Positions 1-9,928 of a DNA stretch of 15,478 nucleotides are shown here, one piece after another. This stretch comes from Escherichia coli. Lineage in GTDB: Bacteria > Pseudomonadota > Gammaproteobacteria > Enterobacterales > Enterobacteriaceae. The notes under the pieces were generated by a model. The model saw only the letters and a list, made by a program, of their open reading frames with translations, was not told the origin of the DNA and searched no databases. Position 1 is the stretch's first letter; each line of letters starts with the position of its first letter. The stretch lies in the NCBI RefSeq assembly GCF_003334815.1, contig NZ_QOWO01000055.1. One strand, written 5' to 3'. The position numbers were made by a program, and so were the translations under genes.

Positions 1-281
1 CGTTCACACGGACCGTGGAGGCCAGTACTGTTCAGCAGATTATCAGGCGCAACTGAAGCGGCATAATCTGCGTGGAAAGCTTCTTTCATTCGCTGAAAGT
101 GGAATGTATCCATGGAGAACACTTTATCAGCCGGGAAATAATGCGGGCAACGGTGTTTAATTATATCGAATGTGATTACAATCGGTGGCGGCGGCACAGT
201 TGGTGTGGCGGCCTCAGTCCGGAACAATTTGAAAACCAGAACCTCGCTTAGGCCTGTGTCCATATTACGTGGGTAGGATCA
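1..281 (+). mobile_element. IS3 insertion sequence, 3' portion only (window begins inside the element); right terminal inverted repeat ends at 281
   Basis: Translation of 2-251 matches, from memory, the C-terminal region of IS3 OrfB/InsF ([24 protein letters not shown] ... [56 protein letters not shown]). The 3' terminus GGCCTGTGTCCATATTACGTGGGTAGGATCA (251-281) resembles the IS3 right inverted repeat (TG...GGACAC motif on the complementary strand). Confidence 0.8.
2..251 (+). pseudogene. insF: IS3 transposase OrfB (InsF) C-terminal fragment, disrupted by an internal deletion and frameshift near position 77
   Basis: The reading frame changes between ...NLRG (ends 76) and FFHSLK... (starts about 81). 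The conserved IS3-family segment between them (SMS-K/R-G-N/C-C-Y/W-DNA-x-x-E) is absent. Stop codon TAG at 249-251. Confidence 0.75.
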
Positions 282-1739
282 CCGCACTCTTGACATAAGA
301 GTGCGGTCCGTGGAAAACGGAGTTGAAAAAATGGTGTCTGAAAGAAGGTACCATCATTGCGATGACAAACACTTTGGCGTGGATAATGTAATTAATTGCT
401 GAAATTGACCGTATATGCGGTAAGACTCATATCAGTATCAGGTCCGGTTAATTGCTGATACTGACATAAACTTTTTACAAAAGGATGAATGCAGAAGGTT
501 ACTCTAATGGCCAGAGTGATGACAATGATGGTCAGACGTTGACCTGCAGAAACTGCATTTTAATTGGTCTATAAAGTCTGCAAGAGGAATCAGGGCCAGA
601 TCAGTGAGTCTTATCGCGGCCCGAAGCTATGACTGAAAGAAGGCTGGATACAGAATTGCAACAATTTGGCAATGTCAGAACACAGAAGCTTTGCAAGCAG
701 GTGAAAGGTTATGTCTAGCAAAAGGAGTATATCAGAATACATCTACTGATGTACAAAACACAACAATAGCTTCATGATATATAAATACGTGATGACGAGT
801 GGTACTCCGCATGGTTATTTAACTTCTCAGCACCACTAATGATCCTGAGCAACTTCGTATTTGGGCCATTGCCATGGAGTAGAAAGCTGTGTCTGAGAAT
901 GCAGAATTTGAGAAAAGAATTCGCTTTCTTGGAGAGCTTCTGAAAATGGCACGCTAACAACGTTTTGTTAAAAAATGTGAATCACTTGCCGAGGCTGCAT
1001 TTTCTATTCGAGGAGAATGTTGACGTAGATATTACAGAAATCTCAGCGCATCAGGATAAACTGCTACCTTAGGTCAACCACCAAAAGAAAATACAATACG
1101 TCCAGTTTGTATGCCTTTAATAACACATCTTTTAAATGTTGAAGAATTATCCCGCCTGCTGAAGAACGTTGCTCTGAGTGTGATAAACCTTTTTATTCTT
1201 GATGATGTCAGCGAGAAGATGGAATATATCCCCGACTGGGTCGTGGTTACCCGGTTAAACATCTGGTGGCGCTAATAAATCTGGCAAGTCACATTCTGTT
1301 GAATGCTGTGACAGTGCCTTACCGAGAGAGCGAAATTGTGGTGTTCTAGTGCATAGTCGCCACCATTCCGGATAATTCTATTGCGTTGTTTTACAAGTTC
1401 TTTTACAGCGCAGATCTGTCGTTGACGTTGAATCAATAGCCTGGATTTCAGAACACAATGCCCGTTTGCTGGTTGGTCCGGCAGTAGCATTAATTCATTA
1501 TCTGAATGAAATGTGTCAATCCACAGAAACCGCTGTCAATGACGCATTTTGTCGGACGTTAACACGAGGAAGTCTGGCTATTCCACAATGCCATCTTCTT
1601 TCGTAATGGATTGAGAATGCTGGATTTTTAATTATATTACGCGCAGTATTGATCGTGTAAATGTTTTGCGGTCAGCAATGGTGGGGGATCCATTGTTCTG
1701 TTCAATGAATACCATCATACAATTGAATCAGGAGTCGGT

Positions 1740-5113: not shown

Positions 5114-5135
5114 GAGCGTTGGTAATTAGAAAGCA

Positions 5136-5164
5136 AAAAGCCTGCTAGAAAGCAGGCTTTTTTG
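5136..5164. terminator. Bidirectional rho-independent terminator between ldtA (+) and tRNA-Asn (-)
   Basis: Stem AGCCTGCT (5139-5146), loop AGAA, stem AGCAGGCT (5151-5158), flanked by an A-run upstream and a T-run downstream, so it works in both directions. Confidence 0.7.
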
Positions 5165-9574: not shown

Positions 9575-9888
9575 ATTTCTGTGTTTCGTGCGCTTAATCG
9601 AGTCTCACGCTTCAGTGAGCAAGTTGCCCCCCAACAGACATCACGATTCGCAAGGTCAAAAACTCTGTTCCATGAAGTACCGTACAAAGATAAAGAGAAA
9701 AATGCCTTATGCGGGATGTCGCTATCGCGTCTTTATCGGGAAACTATGCGTAATTGCCACTTTGCCTTCTGTAATCAGAAAAAGAAGAACTGGAATTTTA
9801 ATAAATATTATTTCTCTGGGAACGGGGATTTTTTATAATCAATATGACGAGTTGAACATTATATTTTTTATAAGGGTTATATGAGATT

Positions 9889-9919
9889 AAAGAAATCTGC
9901 CGTAAAGACAGATTTCTTT
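9889..9919 (-). terminator. Stem-loop downstream of yeeN (putative terminator)
   Basis: 11-bp perfect inverted repeat AAAGAAATCTG / CAGATTTCTTT with a 9-nt loop, 10 bp past the yeeN stop; the flanking U-tract on the minus strand is weak. Confidence 0.4.
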
Positions 9920-9928
9920 AAAATATAA

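Follow-up and report, generated by a model that had tools for sequence, protein, structure and literature searches.

A hairpin abutting an IS3 end in Escherichia coli as the probable clipped remainder of a palindrome at the broken edge of a decayed ISEc11-like element

Main finding

The hairpin described here lies at the left of the window, by which we mean the whole stretch of 15,478 nucleotides of E. coli DNA that was analysed. It is probably the remainder of a 41 bp palindrome that was clipped by an IS3 end; on this reading the palindrome sits at the broken 5′ edge of a dead ISEc11-like element, originated by template switching and has no function now. The hairpin is genomic debris at the edge of an island, and its explanation is mundane and ordinary. 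In its present form in the window it most likely does nothing. It has little importance for cell biology and some value for annotation, and it serves as a reminder that a perfect hairpin next to an IS end, however striking, is not necessarily a signal.

The hairpin and the IS3 boundary

The hairpin (281–307, no strand assigned) is a perfect 11 bp inverted repeat, with a left arm at 281–291 (ACCGCACTCTT), the loop GACAT at 292–296 and a right arm at 297–307 (AAGAGTGCGGT). It therefore has the form in which a sequence-only reading of this DNA had reported it, namely a perfect 11 bp stem abutting the right end of IS3. Folding of the RNA in both orientations, which that reading had proposed, gave a stable structure on either strand (−17.7 kcal/mol for the plus strand and −17.2 kcal/mol for the minus strand, with a z score of about −6.7), and none of 200 shuffled sequences folded as stably as RNA. 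Folded as DNA, the hairpin gave −12.7 kcal/mol. Perfect stems of at least 11 bp with loops of 3–10 nt occur four times in the window, against a mean of 0.025 expected from 200 shuffles. The hairpin is real and non-random. Two further perfect inverted repeats were noted at 5135–5162 and 9887–9921 of the window. The inverted repeat AAAAAGCCTGCT/AGCAGGCTTTTT, 3′ of ldtA, resembles a bidirectional terminator; the inverted repeat TTAAAGAAATCTG/CAGATTTCTTTAA has 13 bp arms and a 9 nt spacer.

The first 281 bp of the window (1–281, plus strand) are the right-hand part of a defective IS3 and comprise the 3′ end of orfB with its stop codon (249–251) and the right inverted repeat (243–281). The identical locus L001 contains the whole copy, which is labelled 'IS3 family transposase, frameshifted' by PGAP and is 1214 bp long (L001:5068–6281); the canonical length of IS3 is 1258 bp. 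An internal deletion shifts the orfB frame between ...HNLRG and ESFFHSLK.... The right inverted repeat (taken as the reverse complement of 243–281) and the left inverted repeat (from L001:5068 onward) both start with TGATC and match at 27 of 39 positions. Identity to IS3-free alleles starts at 281/282, and A281 is ambiguous: IS3 ends on this base, and IS3-free alleles have the same base there. The repeat match and the break in the alignment leave the boundary where it had been placed, with the hairpin beginning at the last base of the IS3 terminal repeat. The hairpin as part of the IS3 terminus was rejected: the inverted repeat ends at 281, and positions 282–307, far from being absent from IS-free alleles, occur without IS3 in about 2,200 genomes.

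The palindrome in IS3-free alleles

Comparison with genomes that lack the IS3 copy, the check put forward in the sequence-only reading, revealed that the palindrome pre-exists there and is longer. The IS3-free allele reads ...GGTTGTA-TCCACGGACCGCACTCTT-GACAT-AAGAGTGCGGTCCGTGGA-AAACGG and forms a perfect 18 bp stem with a 5 nt loop, 41 bp in total (L004:3993–4033); it folds with −37.4 kcal/mol as RNA and −24.4 kcal/mol as DNA. The window keeps the inner part of this ancestral palindrome as its hairpin; the outer 7 bp of the left arm have been replaced by IS3. Alignment with the K-12 C600 and O157:H7 alleles identified CCGTGGA at 308–314 (no strand assigned) as the outer 7 nt of the right arm, now orphaned: in the window the IS3 end stands where the partner TCCACGG was. 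K-12 and O157:H7 share the right-hand sequence of the window, without IS3 and with the TonB-dependent receptor gene yoeA at the left.

Among 5,426 complete E. coli genomes, the full palindrome was counted in 2,212 (IS3-free genomes with it, about 2,100–2,200), and only the portion to the right of the IS3 junction in approximately 550. Strains with the full palindrome include K-12, B, O157:H7, Nissle 1917 and ABU83972. The clipped form is a subset of the full form and is thus the derived one. The palindrome occupies a single locus per genome in these 5,426 genomes; each record returned a second matching 'place' at the same position, which is presumably the palindrome matching its own opposite strand. 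A REP-like repeat was rejected on the ground that there is one locus per genome. The source locus is on the E. coli chromosome, and the same 1.5 kb is found at 100% identity in many complete genomes. In strain ECCRA-119 the order is php and ggt pseudogenes, frameshifted IS3, an unannotated stretch, an IS4-family fragment and a cbi fragment, continuing with cobU, cobS, cobT, ldtA, tRNA-Asn, nac and cbl.

yoeH and the nested element

The hairpin spans the first codons of the equivalent of yoeH (K-12 b4641), which was placed at 284–442 on the plus strand from the MG1655 annotation and tblastn and corresponds to the last 53 codons of a decayed ISEc11-like transposase. In MG1655, yoeH lies in the CP4-44 cryptic prophage region and starts within the palindrome at GCACTCTTGACATAAGAG, a point 208 bp upstream of the start codon of yoeA. 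It translates as ALLT*ECGPWKTELKKWCLKEGTIIVMTNTLAWIM*LIAEIDRICGKTHISIR. In tblastn, all 53 of the 53 residues of the peptide aligned with residues 285–337 of 339-residue IS110-family transposases (annotated ISEc11 and ISEc66) at 43–49% identity, and the match had E = 6e-10 in a local search. Transposases of the ISEc11/ISEc66 type are 36% identical to those of IS5075/IS4321, which places them in the IS1111 group.

The remnant keeps only the 3′ third of the element, with stop codons; the N-terminal ~284 codons are missing and the left end is deleted. DNA homology extends for approximately 260 nt beyond the position of the stop codon, through a long non-coding right end, to about position 701 of the window. 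This decayed right end was assigned to 443–701 (plus strand) with an uncertain right boundary at 701–716, the local alignment of ISEc11 reaching L004:4420, which is window position 701. The element is nested in an IS66-family remnant that adjoins cobU and is tnpB/tnpC-like (696–1253, plus strand; yoeG in K-12), with approximately 70% DNA identity to plasmid tnpB/tnpC. The plasmids L007 and L074 likewise have an ISEc11-like element nested in an IS66-family one. The IS1111-group element had inserted into the IS66-family element, and yoeH, as judged by homology, is the tail of a decayed ISEc11-like element of the IS110 family, IS1111 group.

No relative of the remnant closer than approximately 50% amino-acid or 71% nucleotide identity was found in the collections searched. 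A word-indexed protein search with the yoeH peptide gave no match, and an exhaustive HMMER search gave only two weak matches (51% identity) and no close intact relative. The 17-mer GGCCAGAGTGATGACAA, a pattern too short for scanning genome contigs, gave 50 matches there, with an IS110-type transposase at none of these loci, and the matches were treated as chance.

Several observations were made alongside. Directly after the hairpin comes a short ORF, MVSERRYHHCDDKHFGVDNVINC (window 331–402), whose ATG is preceded at 8 nt by GGAG; its frame differs from that of the transposase remnant, and it is probably spurious. Further ISEc11-like elements (among L007:665–2668, L074:484–3143 and L009:1054–4220) lie within IS66-family elements on Shigella and E. 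coli plasmids, as in the window, and on a Pantoea plasmid one lies between umuD and umuC. Such insertion sites suggest sequence-specific targeting. Downstream of ISEc11 on the Shigella dysenteriae plasmid, an Rfam match to group II intron domain D1-D4-2 was recorded (L007:5000–5113, 81.8 bits).

Right end of intact relatives

In a multiple alignment of intact relatives the right-end region (L006–L013:2669–2935) is conserved and folds into a multi-stem RNA, with covariation at 11 of the 58 predicted pairs (for example CCTGA/TCAGG versus CTCAC/GTGAG). For elements of the IS1111 group a right-end bridge RNA has been predicted (PMC11208160); the right end of the intact relatives fits this prediction and is a candidate for such an RNA. 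No Rfam family was assigned to either the right-end RNA or the hairpin when the IS3-free allele and two intact relatives were scanned; the sole Rfam match at the hairpin, to a microRNA, was far below threshold and was discarded. A 13 bp inverted repeat, ATATCAGTATCAG/CTGATACTGACAT, straddles the position of the transposase stop codon in the window (429–467), and a repeat of this type is kept in all of the ISEc11-like relatives (L006–L013, about 2645–2685). The right-end RNA may begin with this repeat as its first stem. The bridge-RNA-like right end of the yoeH element is still recognizable beside cobU, which is of value for annotation.

Origin of the palindrome

At the palindrome site the intact relatives show no more than an imperfect inverted repeat. 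In ISEc11 its arms, TTATCCACGG and CCGTGGATAA, stand 37 nt apart and arise from the codons for (F)IHG and PWI(T). In the remnant, the 150 nt that follow the right arm align colinearly with ISEc11-like genes (z = 12–20), whereas the 40–150 nt upstream of the left arm give z of about 0 against the same genes, and the left flank showed no match to IS110 or IS66 sequence. Homology downstream without homology upstream indicates that the palindrome marks the 5′ break of the remnant. Transposase codons 114–124 gave a putative match to the left flank, CAGTCGGTCTCTGGTT..., which was dropped because it was no better than shuffled controls.

Compared with its cousins, the remnant has an interior shorter by 10 nt and clustered changes, all of which raise complementarity, so that an imperfect repeat in the relatives is opposed to a perfect one in the remnant, as a template switch at a quasi-palindrome would require. 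Reporter assays in E. coli have established template switching at quasi-palindromes as a mechanism of mutation (PMC7202029), and perfect hairpins have been proposed to arise in this way (PMC8794818). A fold-back or template-switch origin is most likely for the palindrome, as far as comparison of the alleles and relatives can indicate. When the gene was truncated, a fold-back or template switch that started from the natural quasi-palindrome, in the course of replication or of the repair of a break, would have copied one arm from the other and so made the palindrome perfect. The palindrome would afterwards have been neutral, hairpin-prone and unstable DNA. In the lineage of the window, an IS3 end presumably came to lie within the left arm, leaving the 11 bp stem.

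Several points count against this account. The step from an imperfect to a perfect repeat is deduced from distant cousins, and translation of the left arm in the frame of the transposase gives ALL(T), corresponding to residues 285–288, so part of that arm may be original coding sequence and not a copy. The nearly unchanged state of the palindrome in more than 2,000 genomes is expected from the low divergence of E. coli and may also be compatible with selection.

Instability of the locus and the arrival of the IS3 end

The palindrome has been altered in several ways in other strains. In BCE049 (L014:3976–4040), an exact excision between two direct repeats of ACGGA, situated at the base of the stem, has removed 40 bp with the palindrome in them, in what looks like slipped mispairing across the hairpin. 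At least one genome has this excision allele; in the search, genomes that keep the palindrome ranked above it through two-piece matches. Two alleles derive from the IS3 allele: in TW10722 (L003:3900–4100) a deletion took the IS3 end and the whole hairpin, and in WS0115A (L020:2430–2560) IS3 was lost through the 3 nt microhomology GCA, leaving an 8 bp stem beside the php pseudogene. SNPs within the palindrome were found in two strains, one in the loop and one in an arm. In further strains an IS629-like end lies 24 nt, and an IS1 end approximately 43 nt, upstream of the palindrome, giving several junctions within ~60 bp (WP8-S17-ESBL-08, L021:2420–2600; LH13-b, L072:200–320). For research on palindrome instability, thousands of sequenced E. 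coli provide a natural series of alleles at this locus, in which the palindrome is full, clipped by an IS, excised exactly or point-mutated.

These alleles raise the question of whether the palindrome acts as a natural fragile site that directed the IS3 end into its arm, drove the ACGGA excision and attracted the other IS ends, possibly doubling as an RNase III or aptamer element of the yoeH antisense RNA. If true, this would be an example from a wild population of palindrome-driven rearrangement; we regard it as doubtful.

A narrower proposal, that the structure of the hairpin attracted IS3 as palindromes attract certain other insertion sequences, appears distinctly unlikely. It would account for an IS3 end within the left arm and for the IS629-like and IS1 ends close by, but the IS3 end represents a single event, and the region is the edge of an island crowded with IS debris, where clustering is expected without any role for the palindrome. 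The flanks of the IS3 copy, AGG on the left and CCG on the right, form no 3 bp target duplication, and its left flank is foreign. A chimeric query for the reciprocal junction, joining the yoeA-side flank and CCG to the left end of IS3, was absent from all 5,426 genomes. Without a target duplication or a reciprocal junction, and with a foreign left flank, the IS3 end possibly arrived by rearrangement and not by simple insertion. Either insertion followed by loss of the left side or an IS3-mediated deletion could have brought it there. Of the three guesses offered in the sequence-only reading, a structured insertion target thus came nearest, in that the palindrome was there beforehand; the targeting itself is circumstantial for the reasons just given.

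Possible inherited structure or RNA element

The palindrome could instead be an inherited functional structure of the ISEc11-like element, for example in control of transposase expression or of the start of the downstream bridge RNA, and now a fossil. The outer stem TTATCCACGG/CCGTGGATAA, or a version of it that tolerates G–U pairs, is present in eight of eight ISEc11-clade genes and in a Burkholderia gene of 60% identity; L011 has one double change from C–G to T–A, and a rare ATA codon recurs. Against this, the amino acids IHG and PWI dictate seven of the ten pairs and leave the pairing little room to vary. Relatives at 36–47% identity lack the pairing, Bradyrhizobium shows it poorly, the interior pairing of the intact genes is weak and variable, and at 78–98% nucleotide identity the sequences are too similar for covariation. 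We read the quasi-palindromic pairing as a probable by-product of the coding sequence, within a sample of close relatives, and consider an inherited function very unlikely.

An equally slim chance is given to the 18 bp hairpin being an RNA element of a yoeH sense/antisense pair in IS3-free strains, either as a substrate of RNase III or as the aptamer iRAP#6850, which triggers Rho-dependent termination, and disabled in the window allele. In K-12 a constitutive promoter, TTTTCA-18-TATAAT, is directed toward yoeH (PMC3946193); in the IS3-free allele (L004:3837–3866) it points at the hairpin from approximately 125 nt upstream, and in the window allele it has been replaced by IS3. The yoeH region of K-12 is transcribed on both strands, and its RNase III-sensitive antisense RNA, which is detectable only in an rnc mutant, ends at the RNA-polymerase-binding aptamer iRAP#6850 (PMC6847712). 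The authors of that study assign the RNase III sensitivity to sense–antisense pairing, however, and the hairpin has been lost or clipped in hundreds of natural strains with no sign of compensation. The full hairpin may have a role at the RNA level in IS3-free strains.

Upstream of the yoeA homologue and outside the window, TGTAATGATAATTATTTTC (L004:3818–3840) resembles a Fur box, matching the consensus by eye at about 15 of 19 positions. Such a box would suit an iron-regulated receptor gene.

The terminator and insulator readings

The sequence that follows the stem is CCGTGGAAAACGG on the plus strand and GATCCTACCC on the minus strand (ATACAACC in IS3-free alleles), and a T-run 3′ of the stem is absent on either strand. 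A terminator scan did not call the hairpin in the window or in the IS3-free allele on either strand. In IS3-free alleles the hairpin lies upstream of yoeA, within the yoeH remnant, and not at the end of a gene. TTGACA in the loop region was considered as a promoter −35 element and rejected, as there is no usable −10 hexamer 17 nt downstream. The lack of a U-tract means that the hairpin in the window cannot terminate read-through from IS3 by the intrinsic route.

That the hairpin is a transcription terminator or insulator, ending a former neighbouring gene or blocking read-through from IS3, is hardly credible: the stem is strong and GC-rich, with stabilities of −17.7 kcal/mol (11 bp) and −37.4 kcal/mol (18 bp), and in the window it follows the IS3 orfB stop codon by 30 nt, but it has no T-run, is not called in either allele, sits in decayed coding sequence and not after a gene, and is dispensable, having been deleted in BCE049 and TW10722. 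Neither of the remaining suggestions in the sequence-only reading is supported. The absent T-run, the silent scan and the position inside a decayed transposase coding remnant speak against a terminator of a former neighbour, and the greater age of the hairpin, which IS3 shortened, speaks against an insulator.

Comparison with known systems

Intrinsic (Rho-independent) terminators share with the hairpin a stable, GC-rich stem-loop; the hairpin differs from them in having no U-tract in either orientation and in not standing at a gene end. IS1397 and ISKpn1 target REP/BIME palindromes. A further insertion sequence that targets extragenic palindromes is ISPpu9 (PMC12288879). The likeness to such targets is that an IS end lies within a palindrome; here the junction is in the stem and not in the loop, and there is no target duplication.

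Template-switch mutations resemble the present case in that the relatives have an imperfect repeat where a perfect one is found here, with clustered differences that raise complementarity. The event here differs in coinciding with truncation of a gene, and its mechanism is drawn from distant cousins and not reconstructed. With ISEc11 and ISEc66 the remnant shares the last 53 codons (43–49% identical), the right end (approximately 70% identical) and the nesting in an IS66-family element; the intact elements have an imperfect repeat with a 37 nt interior, whereas the remnant has a perfect repeat with a 5 nt loop. The closest counterpart is yoeH of K-12 MG1655, which has the same locus and sequence as the window. 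In K-12 the palindrome is complete, with its 18 bp stem and yoeA at the left; the window has IS3 in place of the outer left arm and of all that lay beyond it on that side.
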